A stretch of 32,972 nucleotides of DNA from sequence record SRR31156797_6766, one strand, 5' to 3'. The notes under the pieces were generated by a model. It was not told where the DNA came from. It did no database searches and saw only the letters and a list, made by a program, of their open reading frames with translations. This document shows, one piece after another, positions 2,756 through 22,024 of the stretch (its first letter is position 1; each line of letters begins with the position of its first letter). A program made the position numbers and the translations under genes.

Positions 2756-3720
2756 TGCAAAAGAGAGATGACATACCAACACGCGTCGGATTTGGCAAAG
2801 GGCTAAAAGAAGCTGCAGCTAAAAACGATATGGTGATAGGTTTGGGAGCCGATATTACGGGTTCTGTCAATATGAACTTTTTTGCTGAAGCTTTTCCCGA
2901 AAGATTCTATTCACTTGGAATTGCAGAACAAAATATTACTACTATAGCAGCCGGCTGGGCATTGGAAGGTTTCATTCCAGTAATGGCTACGTATGGGGTT
3001 TTTGCTGCCATGCGAAATACTGATCAAATACGAATATCACTCTGCTACAATAATGTCCATGTAATAATTGGAGGGGCACATGCCGGAATATCTGTTGGTC
3101 CTGATGGAGCGACTCATCAGGCTTTAGAGGATATTGCAGTGATGCGCAGCTTACCTAATATGACAGTCCTTTCACCTTGTGATGCCACTCAGGCAGAGCA
3201 AGCCATAAAGGCTGCAGTTGAAGAAATTTCCGGACCTGTTTATATCCGTTTCGGTAGAGAAGCCGTACCTGATTTTATACCAAAGGGTACGAAATTTGAG
3301 ATAGGAAAGGCACAAACTCTATTGGAGGGAATTGACCTTTCAATTATTGCCACAGGCCATATGGTTTGGGAAGCCATTCAGGCAGCTTATGTATTACAAA
3401 ATGAAGGGATTAATGCCAGAGTAATTAATTTACATACAATAAAGCCAATTGATCGGGATACAATTATTAAGGCATCTGTTGAGACCGGAACAATTGTAAC
3501 CGCTGAAGAGCATCAGATAATGGGTGGAATGGGAAGCGCTGTTGCTGAGGTGGTAACAGATGAAGCACATTGCCCAATTACTTTTGTTGGGGTAAAAGAT
3601 ACTTTTGGAGAATCAGGTCAACCTGATGAGTTAATGGAGAAATATCAGTTAAAAGCTAAATATATCATTAAAGCAGCCTATAAGGCTTTAGAAAAGAAAA
3701 ACAATGAGCGAACTAATTAA
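2752..3720 (+). CDS. Transketolase, C-terminal subunit
   Basis: 'GIAEQN', 'GPDGATHQALED', 'GPVYIRFGR', 'EEHQIMGGMGSAVAE'; 4-nt ATGA overlap with the N-terminal subunit. Confidence 0.95.
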   Translation: MMQKRDDIPTRVGFGKGLKEAAAKNDMVIGLGADITGSVNMNFFAEAFPERFYSLGIAEQNITTIAAGWALEGFIPVMATYGVFAAMRNTDQIRISLCYNNVHVIIGGAHAGISVGPDGATHQALEDIAVMRSLPNMTVLSPCDATQAEQAIKAAVEEISGPVYIRFGREAVPDFIPKGTKFEIGKAQTLLEGIDLSIIATGHMVWEAIQAAYVLQNEGINARVINLHTIKPIDRDTIIKASVETGTIVTAEEHQIMGGMGSAVAEVVTDEAHCPITFVGVKDTFGESGQPDELMEKYQLKAKYIIKAAYKALEKKNNERTN

Positions 3721-5599
3721 ACACGAATGTGGATTTGCCTTTATCAGGCTGTTAAAACCATTAGAGTATTTCCAGTCGAAATATGGTAACTGGATGTACG
3801 GTATAAACCGAATGTATTTGATGATGGAAAAGCAGCGTAACCGTGGCCAGGATGGTGCGGGGCTGGTTTCTGTTAAACTAGATACATTGCCTGGAACACA
3901 CTATATTAATCGCTCACGTTCAAACTCATCCAGACCTATTGTTGATGTTTTTGACGAGGTTCGCCGACCAATTAATGATGCCAAAAAAAATCATCCAGAT
4001 TTATTAAAAGACACACAATGGGCAAAGAACAATATTCCATTTGCCGGAGAGCTTTATTTGGGACATTTAAGGTATGGTACTTTTGGTAAGAATGATATAG
4101 ATAATGTGCATCCTGTAATGCGTGAAAATAACTGGAAAAGTAAGAACCTGGTTGTAGCTGGAAACTTTAATCTGACTAATGTAAACGAGATGTTTCAATT
4201 GTTGGTTGATTTAGGTCAGCATCCAAAGGGGTATAGTGATACGGTTACTATTCTTGAGCAAATTGGACATCAGTTAGATGAAGAAAACCAGTTATTGTTT
4301 GATAAGCTAAAGAAAGAAGGCCATAACCATAAACAAATAAGTGCAGAAATAGCACGTTCGCTCGACCTCAAAAAAATATTAAGTGAAGCTAGTAGGGGCT
4401 GGGATGGCGGTTATGTTATTTCAGGTATAATTGGGCATGGCGATGCATTTGTAATGCGTGATGTTAATGGTATTCGACCAGCATGGTATTACGCGGATGA
4501 TGAGATTGTAGTTTCAGCCTCAGAGAGAGCAGTTATACAAACTGTGATGAAACTTCCAGAGGATAAGATCCAACCTGTGAAACCGGGGCATGCTGTTATT
4601 GTGCGCAAAAATGGTACGTGGAGCGAGGAGTTGATTAAGGAGCCTGGTGAGAGGTTGTCTTGCTCTTTTGAGCGAATTTATTTCTCACGTGGTAGCGATC
4701 GTGAAATATATAATGAGCGGAAGAGGTTGGGTGAGTTGCTAGTTCCTCAGATTGTTGAGGCTGTTGATAATGAGTTGGTTGATTCGGTATTTAGTTTCAT
4801 TCCAAATACCTCAGAGACAGCATTTTACGGCATGGTTAAAGGCATTGAAACTCATATGTTTGAAAATCAGCTTACGGCCTTAAGTGATAAAAACAATCAA
4901 GACAAGGAATCGATTCGCAACATCATTAATACACGACCCAGAGTTGAAAAAATTGCCATCAAGGATGTGAAATTGCGCACATTTATAACAGGTGATGAGA
5001 GCCGCGATGATTTAGTGGAGCACGTGTATGATATTACCTACGGAACAGTGAAAGAGGGAGTTGACAATCTGGTAGTAATTGATGATTCCATTGTACGTGG
5101 AACTACTTTAAAGCGTAGTATTTTACGTATTTTGGACAGATTAAATCCCAAACGTATCGTAATTGTATCCAGCTCACCTCAAATTAGATATCCTGACTGC
5201 TATGGTATCGATATGGCTAAACTGAATGATTTTATTGCTTTCCAGGCAGCCATTGAGTTATTGAAGGATCGTGGTCAGTATCACATTATAAATGAAGTGT
5301 ATAAGAAGTGCAAGGAGCAACAAGATTTACCAAAAGAGCAGGTGAAAAATCATGTGCGTGATATTTATGCACCATTTGAGGCACAAGAGATTTCCGATAA
5401 AATTGCTGAATTATTACGAGGTGGCATCAATGCTGAAGTGAAAGTGGTTTATCAAACCATTGAAAACTTGCATGCTGCCATTCCAAATGATAAAGGAGAC
5501 TGGTACTTTACAGGTAACTACCCAACACCGGGTGGAAATAAGGTTGTGAATCAGTCATTTATTAACTATATCGAAGGTAAGAACGAACGAGCATATTAA
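3704..5599 (+). CDS. purF: Amidophosphoribosyltransferase (long Bacteroidota form)
   Basis: Propeptide then 'HECG' nucleophile Cys, 'NRGQDGAG', 'GHLRYGT', PRT motif 'VVIDDSIVRGTT', 'PDCYGIDM'. Confidence 0.93.
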   Translation: MSELIKHECGFAFIRLLKPLEYFQSKYGNWMYGINRMYLMMEKQRNRGQDGAGLVSVKLDTLPGTHYINRSRSNSSRPIVDVFDEVRRPINDAKKNHPDLLKDTQWAKNNIPFAGELYLGHLRYGTFGKNDIDNVHPVMRENNWKSKNLVVAGNFNLTNVNEMFQLLVDLGQHPKGYSDTVTILEQIGHQLDEENQLLFDKLKKEGHNHKQISAEIARSLDLKKILSEASRGWDGGYVISGIIGHGDAFVMRDVNGIRPAWYYADDEIVVSASERAVIQTVMKLPEDKIQPVKPGHAVIVRKNGTWSEELIKEPGERLSCSFERIYFSRGSDREIYNERKRLGELLVPQIVEAVDNELVDSVFSFIPNTSETAFYGMVKGIETHMFENQLTALSDKNNQDKESIRNIINTRPRVEKIAIKDVKLRTFITGDESRDDLVEHVYDITYGTVKEGVDNLVVIDDSIVRGTTLKRSILRILDRLNPKRIVIVSSSPQIRYPDCYGIDMAKLNDFIAFQAAIELLKDRGQYHIINEVYKKCKEQQDLPKEQVKNHVRDIYAPFEAQEISDKIAELLRGGINAEVKVVYQTIENLHAAIPNDKGDWYFTGNYPTPGGNKVVNQSFINYIEGKNERAY

Positions 5600-5601
5600 A
5601 A

Positions 5602-5723
5602 GTCTCTGCAAAAAAGCTCCATTTTTAGCGTTATGCTTGTCGATAAATCGGTCAATTACTTTAGTAAAATCCCAATTTATCAACTTCACATGCCTCAAAA
5701 ATGAAGCTTTTTTTATCAGAGAC
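5602..5723 (+). repeat. ~122-nt long imperfect hairpin element, copy 1 (MITE-like or structured RNA)
   Basis: Terminal arms gtctctgcaaaaaagctccattttt / aaaaatgaagctttttttatcagagac; inner stems gataaat/atttatc and ttact/agtaa; homologous to 11059-11184. Confidence 0.8.
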
Positions 5724-5762
5724 ATAGAATATTAAAAATGTTTTTATAGCTATTAGCGATTT

Positions 5763-5789
5763 AGGATGGATTTTTCCATCCTTTTTTTT
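5763..5789 (+). terminator. Rho-independent terminator of the purF operon
   Basis: aggatgga-tttt-tccatcct followed by a T run. Confidence 0.85.
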
Positions 5790-5839
5790 GCAACTCACAT
5801 TAACATTGTGTATATTTATACAAATTCAAATGTACTGCT

Positions 5840-7288
5840 ATGAAAAAACTTCTTACTATATGGATACTTATGATTTTTGCTGGGTTTGTAAATGCTCAAA
5901 ACTGGCAACCAATTAAATCCGGATACAGTTATAATTATATTCTCGGAACGGGAGATATTATAACTCATGTAATTAAAACTGATTCAATTGAGGTTTTTGA
6001 AGGTGATTCTGTGTTTTATTTGAATAGAATTGTTACTGATTGTGATACATGCTCGAACATTGGAGATGATAATTTTTTGTTGAAAAATCAACCACAATTT
6101 TTAATGCGTGAAATGGTAAAGAAGCTAAATGGATTGTATGTTTTTCAAAACCCTGACAGGTTTGTCTTATATACTTTAGCTAATGTTAATGATTCATGGG
6201 TCTATGATTCCGTTAATAATATCACAGCAATTTGCGAATCAATCGGAGTTCAAACCATTTTTGATATTGAAGACTCAGTTAAAACCTTTACTCTTTCCAA
6301 TGGAAAAGAGATTCTAATTAGTAAATCGTTTGGGATTATTGATTTTCCTCCCAATTACCAATTAGTTGGAGTAGAAGGTGCTGAAAATGTTGGTGACCAT
6401 TTACCAGGTTTTTATGAGTTCTATGATTTTGCCATTGGAGATGTTTTTCAGTTAAAATACAGAAATATTGGGGGTGGAGATGGACATACATGGGAGAGAG
6501 TTACCAAATATGAGATTCTTGAAAAAGAAGCTTTTGAAGATTCAATTAAATACCAAATTTATAAATATGACGCTTACTGGGAGCATATTGGTGGATGGGA
6601 TTATAGTGATACTACATTTTTTAGTCAACTTAAAACTATAAAATATTCGAATTCGCCATCTGCTTTTGTAAATAGATATCCAAATCAGTTATATGATTTT
6701 GAGGATTTCTTTGGCAGTTTTTTCGATTTCAGAATGTTGAATAAAACCATTTTTACTAAAGAAAATGGTTTGTGGATAAAATATTCGGGTGCTTTAGATG
6801 AAGATTTTAATGATATATTTCCACATTATGATGTGAATGATAGTATTCCGGATTTATTAGAACGAAATATTGAGGGTCCCCAGTTTATAAAAATTAAGTA
6901 TACTGAGGGATATGGTCGAGAATATCGAGAATTAGGTTTTGAGTATTTAGTTGAAGAATATTTTACAGGCAAAGTTCACAATGGTGACACAACAGGAACC
7001 ATATATCCTAATAGTTTTTTTATGGTAGGTGTGAATGATTTAAAATTGAGCGAATTTGAGGTTTATCCAAACCCGGCTACTTCAAAAATTATAGTGCAAA
7101 GTAAATCTAATCAAATGTTTAATCGCATAGAAGTGATTGATATAACTGGACGAACGCAATTTGTTAAAAACTTACTTGAGAATAAACAAATTCAATTGGA
7201 CATTGGAGAACTTAGTAAAGGGTTTTATATAGTTCATCTGATTGAAAACGGGATTGTTGTTGGAACCGCAAAATTTCAAAAACGATAA
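5840..7288 (+). CDS. Secreted protein with T9SS type A C-terminal sorting domain
   Basis: Signal peptide (MKKLLTIWILMIFAGFVNA-Q); C-terminal 'FEVYPNPATSKI...IDITGR...LSKGFYIV...KFQKR'. Confidence 0.88.
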   Translation: MKKLLTIWILMIFAGFVNAQNWQPIKSGYSYNYILGTGDIITHVIKTDSIEVFEGDSVFYLNRIVTDCDTCSNIGDDNFLLKNQPQFLMREMVKKLNGLYVFQNPDRFVLYTLANVNDSWVYDSVNNITAICESIGVQTIFDIEDSVKTFTLSNGKEILISKSFGIIDFPPNYQLVGVEGAENVGDHLPGFYEFYDFAIGDVFQLKYRNIGGGDGHTWERVTKYEILEKEAFEDSIKYQIYKYDAYWEHIGGWDYSDTTFFSQLKTIKYSNSPSAFVNRYPNQLYDFEDFFGSFFDFRMLNKTIFTKENGLWIKYSGALDEDFNDIFPHYDVNDSIPDLLERNIEGPQFIKIKYTEGYGREYRELGFEYLVEEYFTGKVHNGDTTGTIYPNSFFMVGVNDLKLSEFEVYPNPATSKIIVQSKSNQMFNRIEVIDITGRTQFVKNLLENKQIQLDIGELSKGFYIVHLIENGIVVGTAKFQKR

Positions 7289-8306: not shown

Positions 8307-9608
8307 TTAATTCCAAAAATTATACAATCCCCAGTAAGTAAAACCTCCAATAAATATTAAATAAAGAAGGTTATTTGAGAGTAATATTGCTTTTACCCAG
8401 ATTTTAGTTTTATTCGATTGAATTCTTTTAATTATAAATACTGAAAAAGGAATGATACTGAGCAAAAGTAAAAATGGTATGTAAGATGAAATAGTTACAA
8501 GATTTGAACTATAGTCAACGTATGGTGCATCAAAATAGTAGATATTCTGATGAGTGGCTAGCACAGCTAAATATGCTGTTAGTAACAAATTTAATCCTGA
8601 TATTAGCAAAGCTGCTTTCAGTGAGATTCTGGAGTTTCGATTTGTAAATAACTGAATTGCAAGAAATAAGGTGAGAAGCATTAAAATTCCTGCTAAAAAA
8701 ACAATCAGAATCCTTAGCTTAGGCGTATTGTAAGGAGTCAGGTAGTTAGTAAGTCTCTCAAAGTCAATATTCTTAGGAAATAATTCGGGAATGCTAATTA
8801 CGTGATCACCTTTTGCCAATTCTTCCTTCAAATTAAATTGGATTGTAGTATCATAATCGTGATAAAAGTACAAGTTCACCGATTTATCATTTGTATTCCA
8901 AATAGAAGTGAGTAATGTACCATCTCCGTTTCTGTTTCTGCTTACATGCATCGTGTCTGAAAGGGCTGTGAAATATGCTAATGAACTATTTGCCTGATTC
9001 CTATTAATAAAATCTTCTCCATTTCTGTAACGTACTAGTTGTCTTGCTTGCTCATTATCAGTAATGGATGGGCAAAAATTAGACAGCACATATTGAGCAT
9101 CATTGCCTAAAATAAGTTTGTAAGGCTCTACAATCAAATATTTACCTGAACTATCAATATAAATAAATACATGGTCATAGAATAAACTGTAATCATATTG
9201 CTCTATGTAGGCTTTAACCTCGTCAACATTGGCGCATTTTTGTAAAATGTCAGTTAGATAGTCTACTTCATTGGTAATTTTAATTTTATCAGTAAATGGA
9301 TTTTCCTGAGTAGGATACCATGCTCCCAATCTCGTAAAAGCAAGGCCAACTTCATTCATTCCTGATTGAGGAGCAGTTTTGTTTGATCCAACTTGCCTTG
9401 AACCTGTAAAAGCAGCTCCGTATTCATGGGAGTGTTTCGCATTTACAAACCAGATTCGTGATATCGTTCTCCACGCATCCTCATTGCAGCCAACCATAGT
9501 CTTGCCATCTACAGTTATTTTATACATACTGCATGCTTGAGACTTGTTTCCTGATGAAATTAAAGCCCAAATCGCAAAAAACAATATGAACAACTTGCTA
9601 TTTTTCAT
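8307..9608 (-). CDS. Ntn-hydrolase (choloylglycine hydrolase/peptidase C45-like) with C-terminal membrane anchor
   Basis: Signal peptide ending 'SQA' then 'CSMYKITVDGKTMVGCNED', 'SGMNEVGLAF', 'YVLSNF'; about four hydrophobic segments at the C-terminus. Confidence 0.72.
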   Translation of the reverse strand: MKNSKLFILFFAIWALISSGNKSQACSMYKITVDGKTMVGCNEDAWRTISRIWFVNAKHSHEYGAAFTGSRQVGSNKTAPQSGMNEVGLAFTRLGAWYPTQENPFTDKIKITNEVDYLTDILQKCANVDEVKAYIEQYDYSLFYDHVFIYIDSSGKYLIVEPYKLILGNDAQYVLSNFCPSITDNEQARQLVRYRNGEDFINRNQANSSLAYFTALSDTMHVSRNRNGDGTLLTSIWNTNDKSVNLYFYHDYDTTIQFNLKEELAKGDHVISIPELFPKNIDFERLTNYLTPYNTPKLRILIVFLAGILMLLTLFLAIQLFTNRNSRISLKAALLISGLNLLLTAYLAVLATHQNIYYFDAPYVDYSSNLVTISSYIPFLLLLSIIPFSVFIIKRIQSNKTKIWVKAILLSNNLLYLIFIGGFTYWGLYNFWN

Positions 9609-11028
9609 GTTTTCGAAGTTCTAAGTTATCCATTGCAATTAATTGGTTGGCGTTCATTTGAATATGAGACTCAATCAGCAGCAAGTTTTGTTGAAGAATG
9701 GTTAGGTAATTGAGTGTGTAGTATAAAGTACCTTTAAACTTCTTTTTAGGCCAAGCTGCATCAGTAAATTCATTTAAAATATTATTTTGACTGTGGTTGC
9801 TGTTTGATTTTACAAACGTTTTGTTTAAATCTATTATGTAGGATTTGAGCTTCTTTTGCAAGCTATATGCTTTTCCATCCTGATTATTCCCTATCATAAA
9901 ACTATGTACAAGGTCTCGTTTAAATGGATGCTGCAGAAATTCAATAGACTTTTGTGTTACATTATCTAAATACGGATTTTTGGGGTTGTCCATGCGAAGA
10001 AGTGTTTTTTTAATTTCTTCAATATAAGAAACAAGCTCTTCTGTAGGTTGATGAATTGCAAGGGCATGAATGGTTGTGTCAGTTTTAAAATAATGCATAT
10101 TCGAGGCTTGCAAAGCATTTTTATTTTGAGTAAGGTCTTCAAACAGGTGATAGTAATTCTTACCTAAGGTTTTTGATGTTTTAATTGATATTAAATTCAT
10201 GGTTAATACTACCCAGGAAGCAGCTAAGATTAAAAAAATAAATTCCCCGGAAATGTGTAATTTCTTTTTTGCAAGCATAATTCCGTAATAAGGTACTGCT
10301 ACTAAAAAAACAACAGCATTTCCAAGTGTGAGTATCACACCAGCGCCCGGCCAATGCATAATTTTAAAAACAAATCCTGTAAGTAAAATGATGAGGGCTG
10401 CAAGTCCAACAACAGTAGCACTCTTTTCTTGTGATTTTGGCCGCCCAATAATTTTTGTAATAAATAATGCAGGCAGGAAAATTAAAACTGAAGTGAATAT
10501 TCCGGCAAATAATAATTCTGTGCCAAAAGGAAAGTGCATTACTTTGAATAGCACTCCTAAAGAGTATAGCACAGCAGCCAAAAAACCACTTAAGTAAGTG
10601 ATCATATTTTTTTTGCTCTTTGTCTCCTTGTATAAAATGTAAATGGAAGTAGGTAAGAATAAAAAGCAAAGCACAAAAAAGCCTAATACCAATAAGGGAC
10701 CTGCTCCAGGCCAATGGAATACTTTGAACAGGGAGCCAATTCCTAGTAATACCGGAGCAATTAGCCCGGATGTTTTCATTAATTTTTTCATAATTCTATA
10801 AGTTTTGTCGATTAAATAAAAGGTATCATCTTGAATCTTCTTCAGCCCCCTGTAGCCGATTCTTTCCCGTACCTCATTATAAGCATCTGAAAACTTATAA
10901 CCATTATCCATCATTTGTTCTACATCGCAACATATGTGATCTACCAGATCCTCTTTCAAATGAGAATAATGAATATTAGCAGCGCTAACCTGTTTTTCTA
11001 TTATATTGATTTCTTCAACCGCTAGCAT
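9598..11028 (-). CDS. PadR-associated membrane protein: soluble N-terminal domain, three GldL-like hairpin repeats, GldM-N-like C-terminal domain
   Basis: 'LKEDLVDHICCDVEQMM...F..AY' N-domain; 'FKVFHWPGAG', 'FKVMHFPFG', 'FKIMHWPGAG'; tail 'ELVSYIEEIKK...GKAYSLQKKL...W..KKF...LTILQQNLLLIE'. Confidence 0.7.
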   Translation of the reverse strand: MLAVEEINIIEKQVSAANIHYSHLKEDLVDHICCDVEQMMDNGYKFSDAYNEVRERIGYRGLKKIQDDTFYLIDKTYRIMKKLMKTSGLIAPVLLGIGSLFKVFHWPGAGPLLVLGFFVLCFLFLPTSIYILYKETKSKKNMITYLSGFLAAVLYSLGVLFKVMHFPFGTELLFAGIFTSVLIFLPALFITKIIGRPKSQEKSATVVGLAALIILLTGFVFKIMHWPGAGVILTLGNAVVFLVAVPYYGIMLAKKKLHISGEFIFLILAASWVVLTMNLISIKTSKTLGKNYYHLFEDLTQNKNALQASNMHYFKTDTTIHALAIHQPTEELVSYIEEIKKTLLRMDNPKNPYLDNVTQKSIEFLQHPFKRDLVHSFMIGNNQDGKAYSLQKKLKSYIIDLNKTFVKSNSNHSQNNILNEFTDAAWPKKKFKGTLYYTLNYLTILQQNLLLIESHIQMNANQLIAMDNLELRKHEK

Positions 11029-11058
11029 ATTATTATTTAAAGTTATTCTATAAAGTTT

Positions 11059-11184
11059 GTGTCTGATTCATAATGTTTGAGTTCAAGGCTTGCGAAGTTT
11101 TTAAAATTTCGTAGTCCCGATTTTATCGGGATGAATGTTTTAAATACGAGCATAACGCAGAAATCGGACATTATGTGCAGACAC
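11059..11184 (-). repeat. ~126-nt long imperfect hairpin element, copy 2; overlaps the padR stop codon
   Basis: Minus-strand arms gtgtctgcacataatgtccga / tcaaacattatgaatcagacac; shares gcgttatgctYgt and aacttcRcaWgcct with copy 1; apical tcccgat-3nt-atcggga palindrome at 11115-11131. Confidence 0.8.
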
Positions 11185-11521
11185 TATTTAATCCGAAATC
11201 AGGTTTTAGAATAGTGCGGATAGTGTCAATAAACTCTTCCAGCTCCTTTATTTTCTCCATTGCAGTTGAGTGGCCTTGCTTAGTCAGTTTATAATAAACA
11301 CGCGTCCTGTTGCTCACCATTTCTGACTCAGTTGTGACCGAGCCATCTTTTTCCAATTTGTGCAAAATAGGATATAGTGCTCCATAGGTCAACTGAATTT
11401 TACCCGAAGTAATTTCCTCTACTTTTTGAGTTATTTCATAACCATACATTCGTCCTTGCTCCTTAAGCAGCTTAAGAATGATTGACTTTAGCGATCCTTT
11501 GAGTAGTTCTTTTGATATCAT
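11171..11521 (-). CDS. PadR family transcriptional regulator
   Basis: 'ELLKGSLKSIILKLL...MYGYEITQKV...GALYPILHKLEKDG...RVYYKLTKQG'. Confidence 0.95.
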   Translation of the reverse strand: MISKELLKGSLKSIILKLLKEQGRMYGYEITQKVEEITSGKIQLTYGALYPILHKLEKDGSVTTESEMVSNRTRVYYKLTKQGHSTAMEKIKELEEFIDTIRTILKPDFGLNSVCT

Positions 11522-20462: not shown

Positions 20463-21809
20463 ATGCCAGAAACCGGAAAACATATTGCCATTTTAGGTGC
20501 CGGCGAAAGCGGTGTTGGTTCAGCTATTTTAGCTCAGACCAAAGGTTTTGATGTGTGGGTTTCTGATAAAGGTGAGATAAAGGAAAAATATAAGAAAGAG
20601 CTCAATAAGCATAAAATTCAATGGGAGGAAAAACAGCATACTGAATCAAAAATTTTAGCTGCTGATTTGATAGTAAAAAGTCCAGGTATTCCAGAGCATG
20701 TGCCTATGGTGGTAAAAGCAAAAGAGAAAGGTATTGATGTAATATCTGAAATCGAGTTTGCGGGAAGATATACCAATGCATTTATTATAGGCATAACAGG
20801 CAGTAATGGCAAAACCACAACTACCATGTGGACCTATCACATGCTTCGCAATGCAGGATTGAATGTTGGGTTAGCAGGGAATGTTGGTTTTAGCTTTGCA
20901 CGACAGGTAGCATTTGAGAGTTTTGATTATTATGTAATTGAACTCAGTAGTTTTCAGTTGGATGGCATGTATAATTTCCGTTGCAATATAGCCATGTTGT
21001 TAAATATTACCCCTGATCACCTGGATCGATATGATAATAAGTTTGAAAAATATATAGCTGCAAAATACCGGATCACACAAAATCAAACAAAAGATGACGT
21101 ATTTATTACAAGTGCTGATTGTCCGGTTATAAAGAAAAATGAATTAATAAATCAAGGAAATGCCCGAAAGCTTCAATTCTCAACAGAGATAGAGCTAAGT
21201 GAAGGGGCATGGATACAAAATGAAACACTAATGATTAATACAGGAAATAATCCGTTTGACATGATATACACAAAATTAGCGCTTGAAGGTAAGCATAATG
21301 CAGCCAATGGAATGGCTGCCGGAATTGCTGCGGATGTATTAAGAATATCGAAAGAAAACATCCGTGAAAGTCTCACCACTTTTAGTGGTGTTGAGCACAG
21401 ACTTGAGCCTTTTATTTCTGTTCGTGGCGTTGAGTTTATCAACGATTCCAAAGCAACTAATATTAACTCAACATGGTATGCCCTTGAAAGCATGCGAAAG
21501 GAAGTAGTTTGGATTGTAGGAGGAGTTGATAAAGGTAATGATTATAGTGAATTGGATAAATTGGTTGCTCAAAAAGTGAAGGCCATAGTATGCCTTGGAA
21601 CTGAAAATTCCAAGATTGTAGACCATTTCAAAGATAAAGTATCTCATATTATCGAAACATATAGCATGGAAGATGCCGTTAAGCAGGCATTTTTGCTGGG
21701 TCGTAAAGGAGATTGTGTATTGCTTTCGCCAGCTTGTGCAAGTTTCGATTTATTCGATAATTATGAAGATAGAGGTAATCAATTTAAAATGTGCGTTAGA
21801 GAACTATAG
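20463..21809 (+). CDS. murD: UDP-MurNAc-L-Ala--D-glutamate ligase
   Basis: 'GITGSNGKTTT', 'ELSSFQL', 'PDHLDRY', 'NDSKATN', 'LSPACASFD'. Confidence 0.97.
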   Translation: MPETGKHIAILGAGESGVGSAILAQTKGFDVWVSDKGEIKEKYKKELNKHKIQWEEKQHTESKILAADLIVKSPGIPEHVPMVVKAKEKGIDVISEIEFAGRYTNAFIIGITGSNGKTTTTMWTYHMLRNAGLNVGLAGNVGFSFARQVAFESFDYYVIELSSFQLDGMYNFRCNIAMLLNITPDHLDRYDNKFEKYIAAKYRITQNQTKDDVFITSADCPVIKKNELINQGNARKLQFSTEIELSEGAWIQNETLMINTGNNPFDMIYTKLALEGKHNAANGMAAGIAADVLRISKENIRESLTTFSGVEHRLEPFISVRGVEFINDSKATNINSTWYALESMRKEVVWIVGGVDKGNDYSELDKLVAQKVKAIVCLGTENSKIVDHFKDKVSHIIETYSMEDAVKQAFLLGRKGDCVLLSPACASFDLFDNYEDRGNQFKMCVREL

Positions 21810-21866
21810 ATGATTGATAAAACACTCTGGAAAGAAATATTATAAATGATAATAGAAGTTTTAGAA

Positions 21867-21947
21867 AAGAAGACAGAAGTCAGAAATCAGAAGACAGAAG
21901 ATCAAATATCAAAATTCTGTTTTCTGAATTCTGTCCTCTGATTTCTT
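21867..21947. repeat. Inverted arrays of 7-nt repeats (CAGAnnn x4 / TCTGnnn x4) with no enclosed gene
   Basis: CAGA at 21874, 21881, 21888, 21895; TCTG at 21916, 21923, 21930, 21937. Confidence 0.85.
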
Positions 21948-22024
21948 AAAGTTGAAAAATTTAGGAAAACACTAAAAAGTTAAGATATAGCTTAAAGGAT
22001 AAACCTTTAGTGAGATTTAAAGAA

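Follow-up and report, generated by a model that had tools for sequence, protein, structure and literature searches.

The two long hairpins found in the window, which is the whole stretch of 32,972 nt of DNA that was analysed, are most probably members of a non-autonomous DNA transposon family of the foldback, MITE-like type. The family is multicopy, its members lie between duplicated 6-mers, the same ends enclose different cargoes, and copies occur in tandem arrays and have a patchy distribution. The first-pass annotation had offered two readings of the hairpins, an RNA motif and a non-autonomous mobile element, and the second is supported by copy number, the 6-bp target duplication, terminal repeats, ends shared with other cargoes and patchiness. 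The elements are frequent in one Bacteroidota order, reach at least 141 copies in one genome and break assemblies; they are found at stop codons and within operon spacers. Annotation of the family is now possible with a covariance model and the TAWWTA signature. In two respects it departs from a plain MITE: conservation reaches deeper in the core than at the ends, and one strand is apparently the folding one. Should one strand indeed have to fold, a transposon that duplicates its target would pass through a single-stranded stage or make an antisense RNA.

Two copies of one element in the window

The window contains two copies of the element, at 5602–5723 on the plus strand (copy 1) and at 11059–11184 on the minus strand (copy 2). 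They align end to end, as had been noticed from the letters alone, over 150 columns with a mean column identity of 79% (alignment A1). A covariance model built from 27 relatives (R1) scores copy 2 at 103.1 bits and copy 1 at 96.7 bits and finds no third copy in the window, where the next-best match, at 18.2 bits, is the reverse strand of copy 1. A hairpin with 18-nt arms (94% complementary) at 21882–21946, in the spacer 21809–22010, is unrelated (11–12 bits with the model). The conservation claimed for two inner motifs holds, with exact matches in the window at the two copies only: GCGTTATGCTYGT has five matches at up to two mismatches, two of them exact, against a chance expectation of 0.99 and with none of 100 shuffles reaching five, and AACTTCRCAWGCCT has three, of which the two exact ones are the two copies.

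Both elements run further in the 3′ direction than these boundaries. Alignment, fold, motifs, model score and comparison of ends place copy 1 at 5600–5729 (plus strand), made up of the left terminal repeat with the 5′ arm of the outer stems (5600–5627), the core-left motif (5628–5640), the apical stems (5641–5681), the core-right motif (5682–5695), the inner inverted copy of the terminal repeat (5696–5723) and a 6-nt remnant of the outer right terminal repeat (5724–5729). Read directly, the plus strand has the TSD-like 6-mer TATTAA on both sides, at 5594–5599 and 5730–5735, within an 8-nt direct repeat, TATTAAAA, at 5594–5601 and 5730–5737. TATTAA differs from TAWWTA at one position, and homology with intact copies suggests the register of the 6-mer here. 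With most of its outer right repeat lost, copy 1 is probably immobile. Further 3′, and outside the element, lies a terminator-like hairpin (5763–5782) with a T run, together spanning 5763–5792 (plus strand); copy 1 is thus upstream of a terminator-like site, as had been said.

Copy 2 extends over 11040–11184 (minus strand) by alignment, fold, motifs and model score. Its parts are the left terminal repeat with the 5′ arm (11159–11184), core-left (11146–11158), the apical stems (11100–11145), core-right (11086–11099), the inner inverted terminal-repeat copy (11059–11085) and the outer right terminal repeat (11040–11058). The outer repeat, read inward as AAGTTATTCTATAAAGTTTG, agrees by eye at 16 of 20 positions with the left end of a copy from the genome G001. 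The flanking 6-mers, again by direct reading, are TAAATA at 11185–11190 on the left and TAAATA at 11034–11039 on the right, both on the minus strand and of the family pattern TAWWTA; the right one ends 5 nt before the ATG (11028) of a GldL/GldM-like ORF (9598–11028, minus strand). Judged by sequence, copy 2 is structurally complete and both window copies look like old insertions.

Both copies lie at stop codons, as the first-pass annotation had it. Copy 1, in its initial delimitation, begins 2 nt after the TAA (5597–5599) of a purF-like ORF at 3704–5599 (plus strand), and the left TATTAA contains this stop. The naming of the upstream gene as purF holds in so far as the ORF matches TIGR01134 (E 2.8e-32), and fails in that the score is below the cut-off (112.7 against 350 bits) and no Pfam match is found at E 1e-5. 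Homologues of this protein, about 630 aa long and 48–68% identical, occur in 72 of 301 sampled Bacteroidota genomes (E ≤1e-150) and in further order-level genomes. On the other side of copy 1 is an ORF with a T9SS sorting domain (5840–7288, plus strand). Copy 2 supplies the last four codons and the stop (11173–11171) of a PadR-family ORF at 11171–11521 (minus strand; Pfam PadR, E 6.7e-21). Without copy 2 and one TAAATA, the PadR frame would run in phase and with no stop (11171–11194, 11026–11039) into the ATG of the next ORF. Seven relatives with a purF-like protein of 61–68% amino acid identity lack the element in the region after this gene; their spacers there simply differ, and at this identity the genomes are too distant for an empty-site comparison. 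In G001, the spacer after the purF-like orthologue (contig C201, L322) is full of 'acaaattcc'-type repeats resembling the other MITE cargo described below.

Family size and distribution

The covariance-model search confirms that there are further copies in other Bacteroidota. A loose-pattern scan of species genomes (16 specified bases) gave three true relatives among the 120 loci listed: L049 in a Bacteroidetes MAG, L062 in a Bacteroidaceae MAG and L064 in an Alistipes MAG, the last with two tandem copies. A strict-pattern scan of metagenomes gave at least 120 loci, among these 127 matches, 104 of them distinct, in 28 clusters at 85% identity. Model R1 finds at least 141 copies, among 150 candidates scored, in G001, the Bacteroidota MAG of 4.8 Mb behind L049 (58 matches, some overlapping, in 392,679 bases of G001 loci), and has 14 matches in G002 and 17 in G003. 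Copies are present in 36 of 151 genomes of the order to which G001 belongs, 11 of these having at least 22 candidates scored, and in three of the five genomes nearest to the window by the purF-like protein. Elsewhere the model finds none in 150 other genomes of an even sample of the Bacteroidota phylum, and the strict pattern none in 400. There are no strict-pattern matches in viral contigs and no blastn match in plasmids for copy 2 or for a G001 copy.

Tandem arrays occur at a spacing of about 150 nt. On G001 contig C173 (15815–17311) up to three units lie head to tail with a TAWWTA 6-mer between them; in G003 (L243, L245, L248) the second unit of the head-to-tail arrays lacks the outermost stem. 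The Bacteroidales copies, in G002 and G003, have the same core with other ends, and no TAWWTA duplication is visible at them. Within G002 a Bacteroidaceae subfamily (L249, L252, L255, L258, L267) has a second conserved hairpin after the element (GTGGGTGACCC...GGGTCACCCAC). In three of five G002 copies, judged by eye, the sequence immediately outside the ends consists of copy-specific inverted complements and not of direct repeats.

Terminal repeats, target duplications and cargo

The elements are 130–145 nt long. A small ORF on the bottom strand (MTVFKTSITQ...), the sole coding candidate, is rejected: its frame is not kept, with 12 of 38 representatives having an ATG in frame. The 6-mer TAWWTA stands directly outside both ends, and its middle bases agree within a copy and vary between copies. 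Identical flanking 6-mers are found in 49 of 74 pattern matches, and 61 of the 74 agree at up to one mismatch; the element is readable on either strand, so that a copy may count twice among the 74. Shuffled flank pairs give a mean of 11.8 identical pairs and a maximum of 23 (2000 shuffles). The layout recurs in a second subfamily, whose terminal repeats are different; by eye, 9 of its 18 rows have identical 6-mers, including the rare TAGGTA. In another genome of the order, G423, all four pattern-recognized copies of the five fetched have identical 6-mers.

The ends themselves are terminal inverted repeats of about 20 bp, as seen when the left end, GAGTCTGTCTATAAAGTC, is set against the outer right end read inward, GTGTCTGTCCATAAAGTC, and likewise in the second subfamily and in window copy 2. 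The left repeat reads GWGTCTGTCYATAAAGTC in one lineage and GTCTTTGCAAGAAAAC in another. A full copy consists, in order, of the 6-bp target duplication (consensus yTAWWTA), the left terminal repeat, a cargo hairpin with the core, the inner inverted terminal repeat, a short spacer, the outer right repeat and the second 6-mer. In the long outer stem the left terminal repeat pairs with its inner copy. Past this stem and the spacer comes another, outer inverted repeat, which puts the right end about 20 nt beyond the one first assigned and gives the element three copies of the terminal repeat: left, inner and outer right.

The same ends with TAWWTA flanks also enclose other contents in G001, namely a minimal form of 60 nt (L293, L296) and a hairpin cargo of another kind, 'ccaaatt' (L291, L305, L370). 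Different cargoes within the same ends are what mobilization through the ends predicts. In the G001 sample, core cargo outnumbers other cargoes by about 49 to 4, the four being recognized by reading of the loci. The pattern points to an enzyme with DDE-type staggered-cut chemistry and to mobilization in trans. A transposase supplied in trans would bind both outer repeats and cut the target with a 6-bp stagger, and repair of the gaps would then duplicate TAWWTA.

Several observations count against this reading. Across lineages it is the core that has changed least, whereas recognition of the ends alone would lead one to expect the opposite. A mechanism confined to double-stranded DNA leaves the strand-biased mismatches described below unexplained. 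The Bacteroidales copies have other ends and lack a visible TAWWTA duplication, the TATTAA of copy 1 departs from the pattern at one position, and the searches reported below found no autonomous element with these ends.

Fold, covariation and the conserved core

We call 'top' the strand carrying GCGTTATGC, which is usually the sense strand of the neighbouring gene. Each window copy forms one long imperfect hairpin. Folded as sense-strand RNA, the two reach –35.5 kcal/mol (z –7.2) and –35.1 kcal/mol (z –6.1), and none of 200 shuffles folds as well. The observation that their stems differ yet remain paired extends to the family: across 39 copies, both sides change in 33 of 42 stem pairs. The covariation score is 0.432, compared to 0.138 in shuffles (0 of 500 reach 0.432) and 0.07–0.12 when partners are slid. 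Covariation had been taken to indicate selection on a single-stranded structure. The covariation is real, but the step from it to RNA does not follow, since DNA palindromes can covary too: the outer stems are a terminal repeat facing its own inverted copy, and covariation alone therefore cannot prove RNA. DNA-level causes, for example co-evolution with a transposase or template switching within the palindrome, could lie behind the covariation of the outer stems.

The core behaves differently from the ends. In copies recovered by other means than the strict pattern, GYGTTAYGCTYG ... CTTCRCAAGCC and the apical TCA-hairpin-CTCC are retained, but every stem and both ends diverge; conservation is thus higher in the inner core than at the ends. 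The metagenome set of at least 120 loci was chosen by the strict core pattern, and core conservation inside that set is circular; the strict pattern is matched by 13 of the at least 141 model matches in G001, and it is the copies recovered with the model or with the looser pattern that attest independently to the conserved core. One core pair in G001 occurs in three Watson–Crick types (GC 29, UA 13 and AU 4 of 51). The internal segments had been described as conserved and poorly paired. The conservation holds; the lack of pairing does not, because three Watson–Crick forms at one pair imply that the segments are at least partly a helix, GUU(A)UGC/RCAAGC. An alternative core pairing, GCUYG/CAAGC, is disfavoured, the other register being the one backed by the GC/UA/AU pair in G001. 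One conserved core pair is U·G on the top strand in 41 of 44 copies and A·C on the bottom strand. At both variable core positions C·A on the top strand corresponds to G·U on the bottom strand, in 7 and 16 of the 44 copies.

Comparison with Rfam 15 agrees with the description of the element as unannotated, with no family match on either strand. There are no matches at gathering score in the window and none at E ≤1 in L049, L062 and L064. In the region 5500–5850 only generic hairpin matches appear, all far below the gathering scores of their families; four of them overlap copy 1 and are to plant or animal miRNA models (E 0.26–9.9, at most 22.1 bits).

Strand-biased mismatches and orientation

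Mismatches in the stems are unevenly divided between the strands. Among 29 cluster representatives (80% identity), the top strand has A·C in 81 cells and G·U in 16. A·C is in excess in 25 clusters and G·U in two, with two tied, and A·C occurs at 23 stem positions as compared to nine for G·U. The clusters share ancestry and these counts are not fully independent. In 16 copies the corresponding figures are 54 and 15. In the cargo's own stem P3 the asymmetry is only 13 to 8, weaker than in the terminal-repeat stems. The excess of A·C on the top strand means that the bottom strand folds better. Among 35 non-redundant elements this is so for 34 as RNA, the mean advantage being 10.0 kcal/mol (Wilcoxon p 3e-7), and for 32 with DNA parameters. 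Transcription-linked deamination of the non-template strand would bias the mismatches in the opposite direction. In the window the two copies are separated by 5.5 kb and oriented oppositely, each along its gene block, so that replication direction is not the organizing factor. Two alternatives would account for the bias: either the bottom strand must fold, or an over-perfect hairpin in the sense mRNA is selected against.

The first alternative leads to a reading in which the element is mobile and the core and long stem also work single-stranded on the bottom strand, as an antisense RNA or as a DNA hairpin recognized by a protein. We consider this possible, though on present evidence not probable. 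It is compatible with the MITE explanation and could have a role in transposition or its control. The better folding of the bottom strand under both RNA and DNA parameters, the mismatch asymmetry and the variable core positions that turn from C·A into G·U all speak for it, as do the core pair with three Watson–Crick types in G001, the retention of the core in Bacteroidales copies with different ends, and the predominance of core cargo in the G001 sample. The strongly conserved U·G of the core points the other way, as it becomes A·C on the bottom strand, and the shared ancestry of the clusters and the weaker asymmetry in P3 reduce the weight of the mismatch counts. Selection against a too perfect sense-mRNA hairpin could give the same asymmetry. 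TAnnTTTG is a promoter motif of Bacteroidota, and none was seen by eye on the bottom strand, which counts against the reading.

A narrower proposal, which we put forward as speculative, concerns a conserved module of about 75 nt that comprises, besides the core helix GUU(A)UGC/RCAAGC, a variable stem and, between UCAU and ACUCC, an apical hairpin. This module may be a functional single-stranded device of the bottom strand, either an antisense RNA or a DNA hairpin that a transposon or host protein recognizes; different mobile backbones in Bacteroidota may have carried it across orders, and it may be the reason why elements containing it have out-multiplied MITEs with the same ends and other cargo.

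Orientation relative to genes bears on the reverse possibility, a structured RNA in sense orientation in 3′ UTRs and operon spacers, where it might serve, for example, as an mRNA stabilizer or as a processing or protein-binding site, with mobility secondary. Of 117 elements, 57 have their upstream ORF on the top strand and 16 on the other. With a uniform method applied to 153 elements the numbers are 56 and 22, made up of 17:6 in G001, 23:12 in metagenomes and 16:4 in low-copy genomes. In low-copy relatives it is on the top strand in six of seven cases, and both window copies are in this orientation. All these counts use crude stop-to-stop ORF calls. With the tandem arrays of G001 collapsed and a stricter ORF rule, the ratio falls to only 19 to 13. 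Orientation to host genes is thus non-random, but a fixed sense orientation is contradicted by about a quarter of the copies, which are antisense to the upstream ORF. The orientation bias is real but partial, and selection after insertion fits it better than an obligatory role as sense RNA.

We therefore regard the sense-RNA motif proposed in the first-pass annotation as improbable. Besides the orientation bias, it has in its favour that copy 1 precedes the terminator-like site, that the sense strands fold far below their shuffles and that the core keeps its U·G pair. The mismatches, however, systematically weaken the sense hairpin and favour the fold of the opposite strand, no Rfam family matches, and copy number together with target duplications shows that the family has spread by transposition.

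Search for a transposase

An autonomous element with the MITE ends was not found. Most of the genomes searched are fragmented MAGs, from whose assemblies IS copies are often missing, so that a negative carries little weight. No partner transposase emerged from rve and DDE_Tnp_1 domains in G001, from IS982-, IS256-, IS1595- and IS5-type domains in five high-copy genomes, or from Y1_Tnp in G001–G003, and solo MITE ends across about 440 kb of G001 enclose no transposase candidate. Neither an IS with these ends, which would make the element an ordinary MITE, nor a transposase flanked by them has thus come to light, although both had been suggested as things to look for.

Transposases of the IS1634 family are present in G001, G423 and G465. 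The one in G001 (NF033559, 195.5 and 111.8 bits) is divided between two contig ends with a 17-nt overlap (L311 1–1425 on C80 and L313 1095–1759 on C11); it encodes a transposase of about 500 aa and lies inside a MITE copy with 'ccaaatt' cargo. As an autonomous parent between MITE-type ends it is ruled out by ends of its own, CCTGACTTCTGACA / TGTCAGAAGTCAGG. A 160-nt direct repeat (159 of 160 identical) directly borders these inverted repeats, with the MITE ends farther out. In G423 the homologue (71% identity) stops at inverted repeats of this kind, and nothing like a MITE end follows. A second IS1634 type, on contig C1 of G465 (L335), has a 579-aa frame, ends of the type CTTGAGTTTGACAC and, on either side, ordinary DNA duplicated perfectly over 106 bp; ends of this type also flank a 540-aa gene on contig C208 of G001 (L314). 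The ends delimited for three IS1634-family elements, CCTGACTTCTGACA, CCTGAGTTGTGACA and CTTGAGTTTGACAC, are all unlike the MITE ends. Long, variable target duplications are described for IS1634 and IS1549 in PMC2266710. The own inverted repeats and long duplications indicate that the G001 gene belongs to an IS that landed inside a MITE copy. Close homologues of this transposase (at least 70% identity) occur in three of 151 genomes of the order, the MITE-rich G001 and G423 and also G445, which has no MITE match. At E ≤1e-40 matches are found in 6 of 36 MITE-positive and 11 of 115 MITE-negative genomes. Co-occurrence thus shows no useful association between transposase and MITE.

Movement as single-stranded DNA by a Y1 HUH transposase (RAYT or TnpA), in the manner of REP/REPIN or IS200/IS605-type palindromes, is highly improbable. 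A long imperfect palindrome with strand-asymmetric pairing would suit such an enzyme, G001 has 13 Y1_Tnp matches, and the tandem clustering resembles BIME arrays. The copy-specific duplicated 6-mers do not agree with it, as elements of these types are not known to make such target duplications. Moreover, none of 10 Y1_Tnp loci in G001 has an adjoining element, the only match being a weak one of 23.7 bits, and G002 and G003 contain copies without any Y1_Tnp. An integron attC-like site also seems unlikely: by eye the ends are unlike attC core sites, and tandem copies have no cassette between them.

Comparison with known systems

MITEs of P. gingivalis have reportedly been the subject of a published paper (PMC4596501). 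A full-text literature search returned no paper describing an element like the present one in Bacteroidota, and as far as the literature searched goes this hairpin mini-transposon family is new. The MITE of Cardinium is, according to PMC9769881, an IS982-derived element. Another multicopy non-coding family in Bacteroidota is that of the FopS/GibS sRNAs of Bacteroides (PMC11697453). In that paper's description, FopS has a single-stranded 5′ seed followed by a terminator hairpin, has its own promoters and is deposited in Rfam. Identity with FopS/GibS is rejected on this description of their architecture, ours being a foldback of 130–145 nt with no Rfam match.

The IS1634 family makes AT-rich target duplications of 5–6 bp according to De Palmenaer et al. 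2008 (PMC2266710). The 6-bp AT-rich duplication seen here fits that range, which alone is insufficient to assign the family, and the IS1634-family elements that we delimited differ in their ends and in their 160- and 106-bp duplications. With the REP/REPIN-RAYT system the family shares high-copy, clustered extragenic palindromes and a conserved motif beside variable stems; it differs in its target duplications and terminal repeats, and its copies are not linked to Y1 transposase genes.

The closest parallels are foldback MITEs: Correia in Neisseria, ERIC/IRU in Enterobacteria and RUP in Streptococcus pneumoniae. Like these, as they are generally described, our elements are about 100–150 bp long with no ORF, have terminal inverted repeats and a short AT-rich target duplication, are present in many intergenic copies that are often co-transcribed with their neighbours, and form one long hairpin over the whole element. 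By the same general descriptions, they are set apart by sequence, host phylum and the 6-bp TAWWTA target. No partner transposase has been found for them, and they further differ from Correia, ERIC and RUP in the extra inner copy of the terminal repeat, in the strong strand bias of their mismatches, and in a core that is conserved across orders while the ends diverge.
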